UHGV virus genome: UHGV-0268820
Source: a virus
Strand: one strand, 5' to 3'
DNA: 28,814 nucleotides
Shown: positions 1-4,307 of the stretch, piece by piece
Numbering within the stretch: the first letter of the stretch is position 1
Layout: each line of letters opens with the position of its first letter
Notes under the pieces: model-generated
Seen by the model: only the letters and a program-made list of their open reading frames with translations
Told to the model about the DNA's origin: nothing
Databases searched by the model: none
Program-made: the position numbers and the translations under genes

Positions 1-198
1 GCAAAGATGATTGGCTGTCATGAATCGAAGATAAGCAGAACGGACTGGAGATTTATTGCTTCGGTCTTGTGTGCTTTCGGAATGGCATCAGACATCAGTC
101 CGATTAGCAGGGCTTTTAAGTATGCGCTTGATGGACTCACAAAGAAAAAATCCCCGGCCGCCACCGAGGATTTTAAGCAAATTGATATGCAATTCTGA
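1..198 (+). CDS. cII: CII-like transcriptional activator, 3' fragment (gene begins upstream of window)
   Basis: Frame-1 ORF open from base 1; C-terminus ...[18 protein letters not shown] closely resembles my recollection of the lambda CII C-terminus (...NKKRPAATERSEQIQMEF); position immediately upstream of the O-like gene matches lambda order. Confidence 0.6.
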
Positions 199-221
199 GG
201 GAATTACTGGATCTATCAACA
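144..221 (-). ncRNA. oop: oop-like antisense RNA (about 77 nt) overlapping the cII 3' end
   Basis: On the - strand a 9-bp GC-rich hairpin (AAUCCUCGG/CCGGGGAUU, one G-U pair) is followed by a U6 run (plus-strand A-run about 145-150); a CATAAT -10 on the - strand (plus 228-233) sits about 77 nt upstream, matching the position and length of lambda oop/pO. Confidence 0.45.
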
Positions 222-230
222 GGAGTCATT

Positions 231-377
231 ATGACAAAACAACTCAGTCCTTACCAGGACAAAATTCACAAACACATACTACGTGATCGCTTCCTGTCCA
301 GCTTCAGGCAGCCTGGTCGATTCCGGGCTGAGTTGGAAAAAGTGAAGCTGATGCAGAAGGATAAAGGTCATGAGTAA
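231..377 (+). CDS. small basic hypothetical protein (48 aa) between cII and the O-like gene
   Basis: ATG at 231 preceded by AGGAG (221-225); [51 protein letters not shown] ends at TAA 375-377 and overlaps the next start (ATG 370) in a tcATGAgtaa coupling arrangement. Below the 60-aa cutoff of the ORF track. Confidence 0.4.
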
Positions 378-1230
378 TCTTGCAACCGTAACACATTTAA
401 GGCCTTCACAACGGCCTGTGGAGCGTCGTGTGGCAGAAGTTGAAGATGGTTATACCCGTCTTGCAAATGCCCTGTATGAAGAGCTTATCGGCGCAGATTT
501 AACGAAAAATCAGAGCAAGGTTGCCCACGCCATATGCCGTAAAACATACGGCTACGGTAAAAAGATGGATCGCATCTCTGATAGTCAGTTAGCTCAAATT
601 ACCAGGCTGCCAAGACAGAAGGTAAACAAGGCCAAGAATGAGCTTATCGCGATGAAGGTTATCCTTCGCGAAGGCCAGCAAATCGGGCCTAACAAGAACA
701 TCGAGGAATGGCAAATCGAAGGGTGTCACTACTCTGGTGATAATGTCACTGCATTGGTGACAAAAAGTGTCACCAAAACGGTGACAGCGCTGTCACCAAA
801 ACAGGGACACACAAAAGAAACTATTACAAAAGAAAAAAGAAATAATAAAAACACTATGTCCGAAAGTGTTCGGACGGAGTGTGAAAAATCACCTGACCGT
901 CACGAAGAAACCGACAAGGCATTCGAGGAAATATTCTGGTGTGCAGGCATGCGGAAGGCCGGGAAGAAAAACGCAGCTTCGGCATTCAGAACACAGTTCA
1001 GGGAATGGCGTAAAACTACCAGGGGTACGGCAAGCGAGTTTGCCACGATGCTGGCAGAAGACATCGCATGCAGGAATGGTAAGCAGTTCGGATTCGACAG
1101 GTTATTACCATCGAGCTACCTGAACGGTCAGCGCTGGAACGACGAAAAGCCAGAAACCATTCAACCACAATCCAAACCATCATCCGCAATCACCGTATCG
1201 AAAACTGGCTACGTGTTTTTCGACAGGTGA
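370..1230 (+). CDS. replication initiator, lambda O-like N-terminal origin-binding domain with divergent C-terminal half
   Basis: N-terminal 110 aa align with lambda O ([57 protein letters not shown]); iterons and an AT-rich tract lie inside the gene as in lambda; C-terminal part is unrelated to the lambda O P-interaction domain. Confidence 0.85.
744..858. other. putative origin of replication: 3 iterons (TGTCACC-N5-GGTGACA type) plus adjacent AT-rich tract, inside the O-like gene
   Basis: Inverted-repeat iterons at about 744-762, 768-786 and 791-810 with roughly 23-24 bp phasing, followed by AT-rich 811-858 (acaaaagaaactattacaaaagaaaaaagaaataataaaaacac), which is near-identical in character to the lambda ori AT-rich region. 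Confidence 0.6.
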
Positions 1231-1337
1231 ACCATGAAATCAAAAATCAAATCGCTACTGGTCGCTGGTTATAACCACGGCTGGTTAAGTATTTCGTTTG
1301 TCGATTTCTGGTTTAAAAATCTCAATCTGAGGGAATC

Positions 1338-3218
1338 ATGAGGCCAAGTGAACTTAGCGACCTGCTTTGGGCGCAGGTTGACAGGGTGGCTCCGCACCTG
1401 TTGCCAAACGGCAAGAAAGAGGGGCATGAGTGGGTTGCCGGTAACGTCAACGGTGACAAGGGAAACAGCCTTAAGGTCAACCTTAGCGGAAAGAAAAAAT
1501 GGGCTGATTTCGCTGAGGGAGACGGCGGTGACATGCTTGATTTGTGGATGGCATGTCGTGGAATTAACCTGCATCAGGCTATGCAGGAAGCGAAAGCATT
1601 TCTCGGTATCAAGGATGACGATCACCATTTCGATGCCAAACGTGAGAAGAAATTCTCCAGACCTGATCGCAAGAAAATCGCCCGCTACGTTACCAGAACA
1701 GAATCCCATCTTGAGTACCTGCAATCGCGTGGCATATCGCCAGAAGTCGTAAAGCGCTACGAGGTTGTCAGCGGCAAGGTGTGGAATGGAGAGCGGGAAC
1801 TGGATGCTCTGGTGATTCCGTACAAACGCGATGGTGAGTTGTTGCAGGTCAAGCGAATCAGCACTGAGCGCCCGGACGGGAAGAAAGTCATTATGGCAGA
1901 AGGTGATTGCGAACCTTGTCTGTTCGGATGGCAGGCTCTGGACGCTGGCGTGAGGGCGGTTGTACTTTGCGAAGGCGAAATTGATTGTATGAGCTATGCG
2001 CAATACGGCATCTCGGCGTTATCCGTGCCGTTTGGTGGCGGGAAAGGCGCTAAGCAGCAGTGGATTGAGTTTGAGTATCACAATCTCGACAGGTTTGAGG
2101 AAATATTCATCTCGATGGACGTTGATGATGTTGGTCGTGAAGCCGCAAGGGAAATCGCAAGCCGACTCGGTGAACATCGTTGCCGTCTTGTTACTCTGCC
2201 GTACAAAGACATCAACGAATGCCTGATGAACGGTGTTACCGAGGATGAAATCTGGCAGTACATCGGCACGGCATCCTACTTCGACCCTGAAGAACTCTAC
2301 AGCGCGCGAGAGTTTTACCAGGACACTATCAACGCTTTCTACGGCAAGCAGCAGTATCTGTTTAATCCACCGTGGGAATCTCTGGCAGATAAATTCCAGT
2401 TCCGTGAGGCAGAGTTGACGCTGGTCAATGGTGTGAACGGTCACGGAAAAACGGAGGTTGTCGGGCATATGGCACTTGAGGCAATGCGTCAGGGTGTGAA
2501 GACGTGCATCGCGTCACTTGAGCTGAAGCCTGGTATTCTCCTTAAGCGCCTTACCCGTCAGGCGACGTGCTGCAAGATGCCGCCAGTGCTGGAAATTGAC
2601 TCTGCATTTAAATTTTATGACGAAAGACTTTGGGTGTTTGGCCTGACCGGAACGGCGAAAGCCGACAGGCTGATCGAAATATTCGACTACGCTCGCCGCC
2701 GATACGGGATCCAGTTATTCATCATCGACAGCCTGATGAAATGCGGCATAGGTGACGATGACTATAACGGGCAGAAAGCATTTGTTGACTCGATTTGTGA
2801 CTTCAAAAACAAAACAAACTCCCACGTCATTCTCGTTACTCACTCCAGAAAAGGAGACAGCGAAGAAAAACCAACCGGGAAAATGGACGTAAAAGGCTCT
2901 GGAGCGATAACAGACCTGACAGACAACCTTTTCATCATCTGGCGTAACAAGGCTCGCGAGAGAGCGTTACAGAGAGTTCAGAGTGGTGAAAAGATGTCAG
3001 AGAAGGACGAACAGGTACTGGCGTCTCCGGCATCTGTTTTGATGCTTGAAAAACAACGTAACGGCGAAGGTTGGGAAGGTGGCGTCCCGTTGTTCCTTGA
3101 TGAGCAATCGCACCAGTTCCTGCAACTTGAATCAGGATCGCCATATAGCTACATCGCCAATATGCCGAAATCGGAATATGACGAGGCGTGGCGACAGGAA
3201 AACGTGACGGAGTATTAA
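1338..3218 (+). CDS. bifunctional DNA primase/helicase (TOPRIM primase domain plus DnaB/T7-gp4-like helicase domain)
   Basis: 626 aa; TOPRIM-like acidic motif VVLCEGEIDCMSY...SVPFGGG; Walker A GVNGHGKTEV and Walker B-like LFIIDSLMK in the C-terminal half; GAGGGA RBS 8 nt upstream of ATG 1338. Confidence 0.85.
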   Translation: MRPSELSDLLWAQVDRVAPHLLPNGKKEGHEWVAGNVNGDKGNSLKVNLSGKKKWADFAEGDGGDMLDLWMACRGINLHQAMQEAKAFLGIKDDDHHFDAKREKKFSRPDRKKIARYVTRTESHLEYLQSRGISPEVVKRYEVVSGKVWNGERELDALVIPYKRDGELLQVKRISTERPDGKKVIMAEGDCEPCLFGWQALDAGVRAVVLCEGEIDCMSYAQYGISALSVPFGGGKGAKQQWIEFEYHNLDRFEEIFISMDVDDVGREAAREIASRLGEHRCRLVTLPYKDINECLMNGVTEDEIWQYIGTASYFDPEELYSAREFYQDTINAFYGKQQYLFNPPWESLADKFQFREAELTLVNGVNGHGKTEVVGHMALEAMRQGVKTCIASLELKPGILLKRLTRQATCCKMPPVLEIDSAFKFYDERLWVFGLTGTAKADRLIEIFDYARRRYGIQLFIIDSLMKCGIGDDDYNGQKAFVDSICDFKNKTNSHVILVTHSRKGDSEEKPTGKMDVKGSGAITDLTDNLFIIWRNKARERALQRVQSGEKMSEKDEQVLASPASVLMLEKQRNGEGWEGGVPLFLDEQSHQFLQLESGSPYSYIANMPKSEYDEAWRQENVTEY

Positions 3219-3295: not shown

Positions 3296-3712
3296 ATGAA
3301 AAAACTAACCTTTGAAATTCGATCTCCAGCACATCAGCAAAACGCTATTCACGCGGTGCAGCAAATTCTTCCAGACCCAACCAAACCAATCGTAGTAACC
3401 ATTCAGGAACGCAACCGCAGCATTCGGCAAAATGCACGCCTTCACGCGATGCTATCTGAAATAAGTAAGAAGGCCACATATCATGGAAAAGAAAGAAATA
3501 TTGAGTTTTGGAAGGGGTTATTCGTTTCTGGTTGGCAAATTGCAACCAACCAGCACCCTGAGATTATATCAGGGTTAGAAGGTGAGCTAATAAACATCAG
3601 AGAGAGTACGGCGACTCTATCTGTAAAAAAAATATCCGAAATAATGGACTACATAGAAGCATATTGTGCCATGAACTCAATTCATCTTAGCGAATGGAGG
3701 AATTATGATTGA
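3296..3712 (+). CDS. ninB: NinB recombination protein, mosaic: lambda-identical N-terminus, divergent AT-rich C-terminal two-thirds
   Basis: From ATG 3296 (RBS GGGAGAGGG) the first 42 aa, MKKLTFEIRSPAHQQNAIHAVQQILPDPTKPIVVTIQERNRS, match lambda NinB as I recall it; the remainder is only distantly NinB-like and markedly AT-rich. The track ORF begins at an upstream TTG (3278). Confidence 0.8.
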   Translation: MKKLTFEIRSPAHQQNAIHAVQQILPDPTKPIVVTIQERNRSIRQNARLHAMLSEISKKATYHGKERNIEFWKGLFVSGWQIATNQHPEIISGLEGELINIRESTATLSVKKISEIMDYIEAYCAMNSIHLSEWRNYD

Positions 3713-4307
3713 GGTTTGGGTAGATATCGAAGGGATTCCATTTTATCAGGTTAGCAATAAAGGAAATTTCAGGTCTATTACGAGGGAAGTTACAGTAACA
3801 TCAACCAGACAGAGGCCATATAAGAAAATAATTAATGGCACTAGCGTAAAACCATTCAAGTGCAAGTCGACAGGATATCTTCAAATAAAGGTATACGGTA
3901 AGAAATACAGCGCCCACAGGATAGTTGCGAAAGCATTCTGTACAGGGTTCTGTGATGGCTTGGTAGTTAATCACAAAAATGGGCAAAGAGATGACAATAG
4001 GGCTGAAAACCTTGAATGGGTATCACATTCTGAAAACTCAAAGCACGGATATAAACAAAATGGAAGAATACCTATATCGCTAGGTAAATTTAGCGGTGAT
4101 CATCCTGCCAGTAAAGCTGTTATTTCTACTGACATGAAAACTGGTGAGGAGGTTTATTATGAAGCAGCTATGGATGCTGTCAGAGAAGGATTTGATAGTT
4201 CGTCAATTAGTCGTTGCTGTAATGGCGAAAGCTCATATCACAAAGGAAGATTCTGGCGATTTGCAAATGAAACAATGAAAGCAAGATGGGGAGACAGGGC
4301 TGCATGA
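3705..4307 (+). CDS. HNH homing endonuclease (NUMOD4-like N-terminus, HNH_3 core, C-terminal DNA-binding region)
   Basis: N-terminus MIEVWVDIEGIPFYQVSNKGNFRSI (NUMOD4-like); HNH motif NHKNGQRDDNRAENLEWVSHSEN; AT-rich composition; last residues KARWGDRAA match the lambda NinB C-terminus; start overlaps the ninB stop (ATGATTGA) with a GGAGG RBS. Confidence 0.8.
   Translation: MIEVWVDIEGIPFYQVSNKGNFRSITREVTVTSTRQRPYKKIINGTSVKPFKCKSTGYLQIKVYGKKYSAHRIVAKAFCTGFCDGLVVNHKNGQRDDNRAENLEWVSHSENSKHGYKQNGRIPISLGKFSGDHPASKAVISTDMKTGEEVYYEAAMDAVREGFDSSSISRCCNGESSYHKGRFWRFANETMKARWGDRAA

Follow-up and report, generated by a model that had tools for sequence, protein, structure and literature searches.

Distinct iterons in the O-like genes of lambdoid phages have been known since 1979-81, that is, since the first lambdoid origin sequences. 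In phage lambda, the O protein binds its iterons as a dimer, and its binding to duplex DNA has been demonstrated (PMC5043065). The sequence of events that comprises dimer binding, opening of the AT-rich tract and the start of replication is known for lambda and for the Stx phages P27 and 933W (PMC5043065, PMC7466680), and the O-like proteins of lambda, P22 and L recognise different iterons within their own genes (PMC8022706). Plasmid iteron origins (P1, F, R6K, RK2, pSC101) also have phased, replicon-specific initiator sites beside an AT-rich region that opens (PMC5043065). The locus described here shares this layout, but differs from the plasmid origins in that its repeats, like those of lambda, are palindromic and sit within the initiator gene itself.

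The locus lies in a stretch of 28,814 nucleotides of viral DNA (UHGV virus genome UHGV-0268820), which was analysed as a whole and is called the window below. We propose, with a probability of about 0.85, that positions 724-882 of the window are the replication origin of a lambdoid phage or prophage of the mEp043/Sf101/SEN22 replication type, built like ori-lambda. Such an origin is an ordinary member of a textbook class and leaves the concepts unchanged; the practical gain is one of annotation, in that the origin can now be placed to the base. Repeat finding recovered four copies of a 19-bp dyad with the consensus TGTCAC-N7-GTGACA, and these copies and the features around them are as follows.

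7-198: end of a CII-like gene, upstream of the initiator gene.
231-377: DUF2740 open reading frame of 48 codons, upstream of the initiator gene.
370..1230, plus strand: O-family replication initiator gene, 286 aa, which contains the origin (open reading frame; Pfam; PHROG 'replication initiation O-like').
427..711, plus strand: N-terminal origin-binding domain, a predicted winged helix (Pfam PF04492 Phage_rep_O).
724..742, strand not applicable: iteron 1, TGTCACTACTCTGGTGATA, with one mismatch to the pattern and in register with lambda ITN1.
744..762, strand not applicable: iteron 2, TGTCACTGCATTGGTGACA, with zero mismatches.
768..786, strand not applicable: iteron 3, TGTCACCAAAACGGTGACA, a perfect dyad with a CAAAAC centre like lambda.
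791..809, strand not applicable: iteron 4, TGTCACCAAAACAGGGACA, with a degenerate right arm, like lambda ITN4.
810..850, strand not applicable: AT-rich tract, presumed DNA-unwinding element (low GC, low duplex stability, match to lambda).
851..882, strand not applicable: inverted repeat, ACACTATGTCCGAA / TTCGGACGGAGTGT, at the position of the lambda ori palindrome.
880..1227, plus strand: C-terminal domain of the initiator, of the ES18 gp59 type, presumed helicase-recruitment module (phrog_33384).
1234..1341, plus strand: small open reading frame, 35 aa, ES18 gp60-like (phrog_21848, E = 4.4e-26; ES18 annotation).
1338..3218, plus strand: phage primase/helicase, 626 aa, Toprim and DnaB-like ATPase, presumed replicative helicase for this origin (Pfam, PHROG).

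The match of the initiator to Phage_rep_O covers residues 20-114 (E = 1.2e-37) and that to phrog_33384 covers residues 157-286 (E = 1.7e-88), and the repeats begin at nt 724, between the end of Phage_rep_O at nt 711 and the C-domain match from about residue 157. The first-pass annotation had placed the iterons in the linker-coding part of the gene, and they do indeed occupy the interdomain part of ORF 370-1230, directly after Phage_rep_O. It had also counted three inverted-repeat iterons; the three sites (744-762, 768-786 and 791-809) stand, but the number is four, with an extra copy at 724-742. The primase/helicase matches Toprim_2 (3.1e-12), AAA_25 and DnaB_C in Pfam and the 'DNA primase/helicase' family phrog_239 (2.8e-171), and the ES18 record describes its counterpart, gp61, as 'similar to phage T7 gene 4'. 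Farther downstream are ninB, an HNH endonuclease, an antirepressor, ninG, a phosphatase, a portal gene and tail genes. This gene content marks the window as the right arm of a temperate phage or prophage of the lambdoid group. Positions 370-1340 are 99.0-99.7% identical to vB_EcoP-720R6, mEp043, Sf101 and SEN22. The mEp043 record annotates the gene as replication protein O and leaves the origin unmarked, the other matching phage and E. coli records list the replication-protein gene alone under the match, and a literature search for the iteron string in a phage context found none.

A scan of the 28.8-kb window for TGTCAC-N7-GTGACA, with up to two mismatches allowed, gives 7 occurrences where 0.95 are expected; 0 of 100 shuffled windows reached this count, and the best four copies fall inside 86 bp. 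The iterons are spaced 20, 24 and 23 bp from start to start, which is about two helical turns. An A-tract centre is absent from iterons 1 and 2, and the right arm of iteron 4 is AGGGACA (compare ATCCCTCAAAACAGGGGGA in lambda ITN4). The codon phases of iterons 1 to 4 are 0, 2, 2 and 1; with three different phases among the four copies, the repeat is thus a feature of the DNA and not of the peptide.

To the right of the array, ACAAAAGAAA is present at 811 and again at 826, within the AT-rich tract. The GC fraction is 0.30 at 800-839 and 0.175 at 820-859, and in terms of nearest-neighbour free energy, positions 817-857 are the least stable 41-bp stretch in the whole window. The earlier description of a tract next to the iterons that is lambda-like "in character" is borne out by this drop in GC, and the likeness is closer than those words suggest, with 31 of 32 bases at 811-842 identical to lambda. 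The inverted repeat that follows has arms of 14 nt each (851-864 and 869-882), 86% complementary and 4 nt apart. This repeat is common to the window and ES18, the repeats found there in lambda and P22 differ in sequence, and in the alignment of lambdoid origins described below its sequence varies with the type of helicase or loader.

The resemblance to ori-lambda covers the whole layout: an origin within the initiator gene, between its two domains, with four 19-bp dyads, a CAAAAC centre, the 20/24/23-bp spacing, a last iteron that merges into ...ACACAAAAGA, an AT tract and an inverted repeat to the right. In our lambda sequence (L085), ITN1-4 start at 1250, 1270, 1294 and 1317, and their spacing is the same as that of the window's starts at 724, 744, 768 and 791. 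The N-domain of lambda O belongs to the same Pfam family as the window's and is 53% identical to it. Against this common layout, the window has the half-site TGTCAC(C) where lambda has ATCCCTC, and the helix segment, the sequence of the right-hand inverted repeat and the C-domain are also different, with a phage primase/helicase instead of P and host DnaB. The rep-lambda type, to which lambda, 434, ES18 and many Stx phages belong, is defined by the half-site ATCCCTC / GAGGGAT together with an O N-domain that fits it, and the window falls outside this type.

To place the window among other origins, we aligned it with 13 other lambdoid O-gene origins by anchoring on ACAAAAGA, the start of the AT tract. 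All 14 origins stack gap-free over the 95 nt before ACAAAAGA, with four iterons in the same register. The usual iteron centre is CAAA(A/G), the last iteron runs into the same AT-tract sequence named above, and the main difference among the 14 is the half-site. The half-site is TGTCACC in this window and in Proteus phage vB_BPM-V3; TGTTACC/TGTTCCC in phiEt88 and Midgardsormr38; TGTATCC/TGTTCCC in Omnitron; TGTCTCC in Pocitis76 and CurroJimenez; ATCCCTC in lambda and ES18; TTTACC in P22; TTAGCC in mEp213 and Yersinia phage 21.09; TTACCC in PhiR26_1; TTCCCG in mEp237, which has a phi80-like O; and ATCCCCG in Gifsy-1. The origins in P22 gene 18 (annotated 'similar to phage lambda') and in the HK97-type O gene of mEp213 share the intragenic four-iteron layout and the register of the window, but differ from it in their half-sites, which for the mEp213 type include that of Yersinia phage 21.09, and in a DnaB-like helicase partner. 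The comparison yields a gap-free catalogue of iteron types, to which the matching helix segments given below can be added.

To assess selection on the DNA itself, we compared eight homologues, from Salmonella, Pseudescherichia, Leclercia, Citrobacter, Klebsiella, Pantoea and two metagenomic contigs, with an N-domain identity of 76-91%. As a synonymous measure we took, among codon pairs for the same amino acid, the fraction with different codons. This fraction is 0.38 in the N-domain (amino-acid difference 0.16), 0.05 in the iterons (0.18), 0.05 in the AT tract (0.27) and 0.49 in the C-domain (0.37). By this measure, conservation of synonymous sites is about 8-10 times stronger in the iterons and the AT tract than in the domains on either side, and because amino-acid divergence is similar across the regions, the drop is specific to the DNA. 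When vB_BPM-V3 and the window are added to the eight homologues, 41 of 48 positions are invariant in the arms, 13 of 28 in the iteron centres and 2 of 10 in the spacers. Judged by sequence comparison, this pattern marks out a DNA element that binds a protein and is selected as such.

One may still ask whether the element serves as an origin at present, or is a conserved relic in a phage that begins to replicate elsewhere, say at a position which the primase/helicase selects. The origin role of the TGTCAC iteron type is drawn from comparison, and the Stx2a phage Stx2_16002 fuses the same C-domain to an unrelated N-domain, with lambda-type iterons absent from the inspected stretch, which indicates that the helicase module can work with other origins. 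We nevertheless consider a relic very unlikely. Purifying selection at synonymous sites is strong across several enterobacterial genera; the segment 640-860 is found in 175 of 5426 complete E. coli genomes, in 164 of them at an identity of at least 99%; and the element is kept, beside a different helicase system, in PhiR12_1, a deposited complete phage genome whose record gives a laboratory strain of E. coli K-12 as the host. The reading of 724-882 as a working origin of the ori-lambda kind fits these observations.

The part of the gene with which the iterons travel can be read from chimeras. Gene 59 of ES18 is a reciprocal chimera of the window's initiator gene. It is 93.9% identical at the nucleotide level to window 797-1340, with the similarity beginning inside iteron 4. 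Common to both phages are the right part of iteron 4, the AT tract, the inverted repeat GTCCGAA/TTCGGAC, the C-domain, the small gp60 frame and the gp61 primase/helicase, whose start is the last feature within the 797-1340 match. ES18 carries a lambda-type N-domain together with iterons of the lambda type (such as ATCCCTCAAAATGAGGGA), and its record labels the origin 'similar to lambda ori'. PhiR12_1, either a natural isolate or a laboratory recombinant (a literature search on the PhiR12 phages gave nothing relevant), matches window 370-842 at 100%, a stretch that takes in the N-domain, all four iterons of the TGTCAC type and the AT tract; beyond 842 it has a C-domain of the lambda type and then P and ren, without the primase/helicase. 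Proteus phage vB_BPM-V3 has an N-domain that is 68.6% identical to that of the window and four TGTCACC...GTGACA iterons in the same register, but differs in its DnaB-type C-module with a helicase and in a CCCC/GGGG inverted repeat. The iterons are also present in 80 of 80 fetched IMG/VR loci with a 99-100% identical N-domain, loci that are essentially identical to each other and inform on prevalence, not on covariation, the diverged homologues having been fetched separately. In 76 of these 80 loci the C-domain adjoins the primase/helicase gene, and the other four gave no primase/helicase match. Hence, in ES18, PhiR12_1, vB_BPM-V3 and the 80 loci, the iterons follow the N-domain rather than the C-domain or the helicase. 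Absence of the repeats from homologues with the same DNA-binding domain had been named as evidence that would count against a matched initiator and iteron pair; instead, the repeats accompany this domain in the 80 loci, in the eight homologues at 76-91% and in vB_BPM-V3.

These combinations also bear on the protein that binds the repeats. The origin of satellite phage P4 carries TGTTCACC repeats, to which the alpha protein of that phage binds. TGTCACC is superficially like the P4 octamer, and with a primase/helicase gene 500 bp downstream, one could suppose that this enzyme, instead of the O-like protein, binds the repeats in the style of P4 alpha. However, ES18 pairs the same primase/helicase with lambda iterons, PhiR12_1 pairs TGTCAC iterons with lambda P and has no primase/helicase, and vB_BPM-V3 has TGTCAC iterons beside a DnaB-type helicase. 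The 626-aa protein itself shows Toprim and DnaB-like ATPase alone, and an extra DNA-binding domain was not detected with Pfam or PHROG. Binding by the primase/helicase is therefore extremely unlikely in our estimation. An origin of the P4 alpha type, in which a multidomain primase-helicase with a C-terminal origin-binding domain binds TGTTCACC-like repeats, was considered as well, and was rejected because the repeats segregate from the primase/helicase in ES18 and PhiR12_1.

A different reading takes the inverted repeats as RNA or single-stranded DNA hairpins, such as antisense terminators, and not as duplex sites for a protein. A consensus scan flagged terminator-like sequences on the minus strand at 798-779, 786-768 and 875-858, and conserved arms with variable centres would suit a stem-loop too. 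Yet each phage has one arm sequence across all four copies, and this sequence changes with the N-domain, neither of which a hairpin needs. The T-runs behind the flags are the complement of the CAAAAC centres, which are conserved in lambda, where O dimers bind the duplex (PMC5043065). An Rfam scan of the whole window returned zero family matches, and we regard hairpins as an exceedingly improbable account of the repeats. The chance that the DNA repeat is a coding by-product of a repetitive linker peptide (VT.LVTK.VTKTVT) without a role in cis is close to nil, for although the region is translated and the linker peptide is conserved in homologues, the copies are read in different codon phases, each copy is palindromic, which a peptide repeat would not demand, the synonymous sites are 8-10 times more conserved than those of the folded domains at similar amino-acid divergence, and the variation sits in the spacers rather than in the arms.

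For the N-domain, an AlphaFold2 model of residues 1-120 of the initiator has a mean pLDDT of 73.5, with block means of 81-95 over residues 61-110, and predicts a winged helix made up of three helices (46-60, 71-78, 82-94) and a hairpin that spans 98-107 (strands 98-101 and 104-107); for the full 286-aa initiator, the mean pLDDT is only 49. An N-domain-only protein search returned mostly truncated entries, which were used solely to deepen the alignment for structure prediction. The top Foldseek matches of the model are the winged-helix domains of CRP, MarR-family proteins and CodY, dimeric regulators that bind palindromes, and they are generic matches, with a probability of 0.9-1.0, E values of only 0.03-0.1 and TM scores of 0.4-0.5. 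Sequence search of the PDB gave no relevant relative, and profile search of the PDB gave weak winged-helix matches with E values of at least 0.3. The third helix of the model, residues 82-94 (nt 613-651), is the putative recognition helix.

The segment of residues 80-94 is identical in the window and vB_BPM-V3, and differs from lambda at 8 of 15 positions. Among the other phage groups, the helix segment ISRSKANIAKN occurs with the half-sites TGTTACC/TGTTCCC, LSRQNVNKAKK with TGTCTCC, LPVKRCNEAKL (lambda) with ATCCCTC and IHHTHVC with ATTAGCC. The segment thus appears to change in step with the half-site across the groups, a pattern that is suggestive only and is confounded with ancestry. In a Mantel test against half-site identity, the helix segment gave r = 0.45 (p = 0.003) and the rest of the domain gave r = 0.48, and because the rest of the domain correlates equally, the test fails to tell specificity apart from common descent; in some phages, moreover, a register offset of one base made the automatically derived half-site consensus less sharp. 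We therefore used the chimeras instead as the basis for the pairing of N-domain and iterons. Since the half-site and the recognition-helix segment both differ from those of lambda, the comparison supports the view that the initiator/origin pair is a separate specificity class within the lambda family. The first-pass annotation had read the iterons as unlike the lambda type and as matched to an initiator with its own specificity, and this claim finds comparative support in the alignment, the chimeras and the homologues; "replication (ori-recognition) specificity type" is the label that these data support, whereas the first-pass term "replicon incompatibility type" would be an extrapolation.

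The sequence comparisons establish the anatomy of the element, its homology to ori-lambda, the selection on the DNA and the joint inheritance of iterons and N-domain. By analogy with the biochemistry of lambda (PMC5043065, PMC7466680), from which dimer binding, unwinding and helicase loading are carried over to this locus, replication may start as follows. Dimers of the initiator would bind the four 19-bp dyad iterons through the N-terminal winged helix, with the recognition helix (about residues 82-94) reading the half-site TGTCAC(C). The dimers bound to the phased sites, 20, 24 and 23 bp apart, would then form one nucleoprotein complex that strains the DNA, if occupancy of all four sites is assumed, and the strain would open the adjoining, unstable AT-rich tract at 810-850. 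The C-domain of the initiator would bring in the phage T7-gp4-like primase/helicase, which would stand in for lambda P and host DnaB; this recruitment is presumed solely from the linkage of the two genes. The initiator-iteron complex may even pass the opened origin straight to the primase/helicase, without a P-like loader, host DnaB or DnaG, a tentative idea to which we give somewhat less than even odds.

If such a direct hand-over takes place, the N-domain with the iterons, on the one hand, and the C-domain with the right-hand inverted repeat and the helicase gene, on the other, would be freely exchangeable cassettes, joined in a common block between the middle of iteron 4 and the AT tract. 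The natural series of neighbouring half-sites TGTCACC, TGTTACC, TGTTCCC/TGTATCC, TGTCTCC and ATCCCTC, with the matched helices, might then be readable as a recognition code, and such a code would be usable for mutually orthogonal lambda-type replicons. The comparison could be of use to experiments on DNA recognition by the winged helix of O and on co-resident prophages and their cross-talk, and to the design of compatible lambda-type vectors. It also shows where recombination joins the module for origin recognition to that for helicase recruitment, namely at 797 in ES18, at 842 in PhiR12 and at 846 in the Stx2 phages, phiKp_30 and APC_JM3.2. The block held in common, reaching from the middle of iteron 4 across the AT tract, therefore looks like the place where the two halves of the gene are joined by recombination.

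The recombination joints that link the origin-recognition and helicase-recruitment modules of the O-like initiator gene are clustered in 791-846 of the window. In ES18, which shares the C-terminal domain and the primase/helicase, similarity to the window begins at 797, within iteron 4 (791-809); in the Stx2 phages, phiKp_30 and APC_JM3.2 it begins at 846, and in PhiR12, which shares the N-terminal domain, the iterons and the AT tract, identity to the window stops at 842. The right arm of iteron 4, AGGGACA, deviates from the consensus of the window's iterons and is similar to lambda ITN4. The features that surround this region and are discussed below are as follows.

143-238, minus strand, oop-like unit for an antisense RNA, with the cII-like gene on one side and the DUF2740 ORF on the other
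231-377, DUF2740 ORF of 48 codons, of the P22 'orf48' type
851-882, inverted repeat directly right of the AT tract
1452-1458 and 1527-1533, minus strand, a pair of solitary TGTCACC half-sites within the 5' portion of the primase/helicase gene
3705-4307, HNH endonuclease ORF that contains a NUMOD4 motif (Pfam E values 1.5e-13 and 8.2e-12)

We compared the inverted repeat with the same position in the fetched loci L001, L084-L089 and L093-L098, and its sequence varies with the type of helicase or helicase loader. It is GTCCGAA..TTCGGAC in the phages with a primase/helicase (the window and ES18), CCCC(C)..GGGG(G) in those with a DnaB-like helicase (P22, mEp213, phiEt88, vB_BPM-V3, Omnitron and Midgardsormr38) as well as in MS2 LVA, a record without annotation, and TCAGAGAATTCTGGCGAATCCTCTGA in those with P (lambda, PhiR26_1 and PhiR12_1). 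The repeat may be a loading signal, or it may merely mark the start of the C-terminal module.

A window-type C-terminal domain is joined to an unrelated N-terminal domain, helix-turn-helix-like as judged by eye, in the Stx2a-converting phage Stx2_16002 (L099 727-1485). The inverted repeat of this fusion gene is a variant form of GTCCGAA/TTCGGAC, and inspection of 350 nt showed neither lambda-type iterons nor an AT tract. The helicase-recruitment module thus pairs with a quite different origin-recognition domain as well.

The number of iterons differs between relatives. In two lambda-type homologues of our protein alignment (P0039 and P0046), the peptide that the iterons encode, TSLKTGDK or IPQNEGGSPKMRD, occurs in additional copies, and Gifsy-1 has at least six repeats of the type ATCCCCGAAAA(C/G)GGGGA in the stretch inspected, reminiscent of Stx phages, which have six iterons (PMC7466680). 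As for TGTCACC half-sites, the window holds 8 versus 3.6 expected, a count reached in 4 of 100 shuffles, and the two stray copies in the primase/helicase gene are probably there by chance.

Upstream of the O-like gene, the oop-like unit comprises a promoter-like site (219-192) and a terminator-like hairpin with a T-run (174-147), both on the minus strand and both from a consensus scan. Alignment to the cII/O junction of lambda shows identity over some 37 nt up to the ATGACAAA start codon, ATTACTGGATCTATCAACAGGAGTCATTATGACAAA; this block is the pO/oop motif that PMC3349717 lists as conserved. The DUF2740 ORF shares its last 8 nt with the beginning of the O-like gene, and the start of lambda O is itself homologous to the start-codon region of this ORF. 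The same small ORF lies upstream of the O-like genes of P22, mEp043 and Midgardsormr38 and of diverged prophage homologues. Farther downstream, the HNH endonuclease ORF is inserted with ninB on one side and a PAPS-reductase-like gene on the other, and is probably a mobile, homing-type endonuclease.
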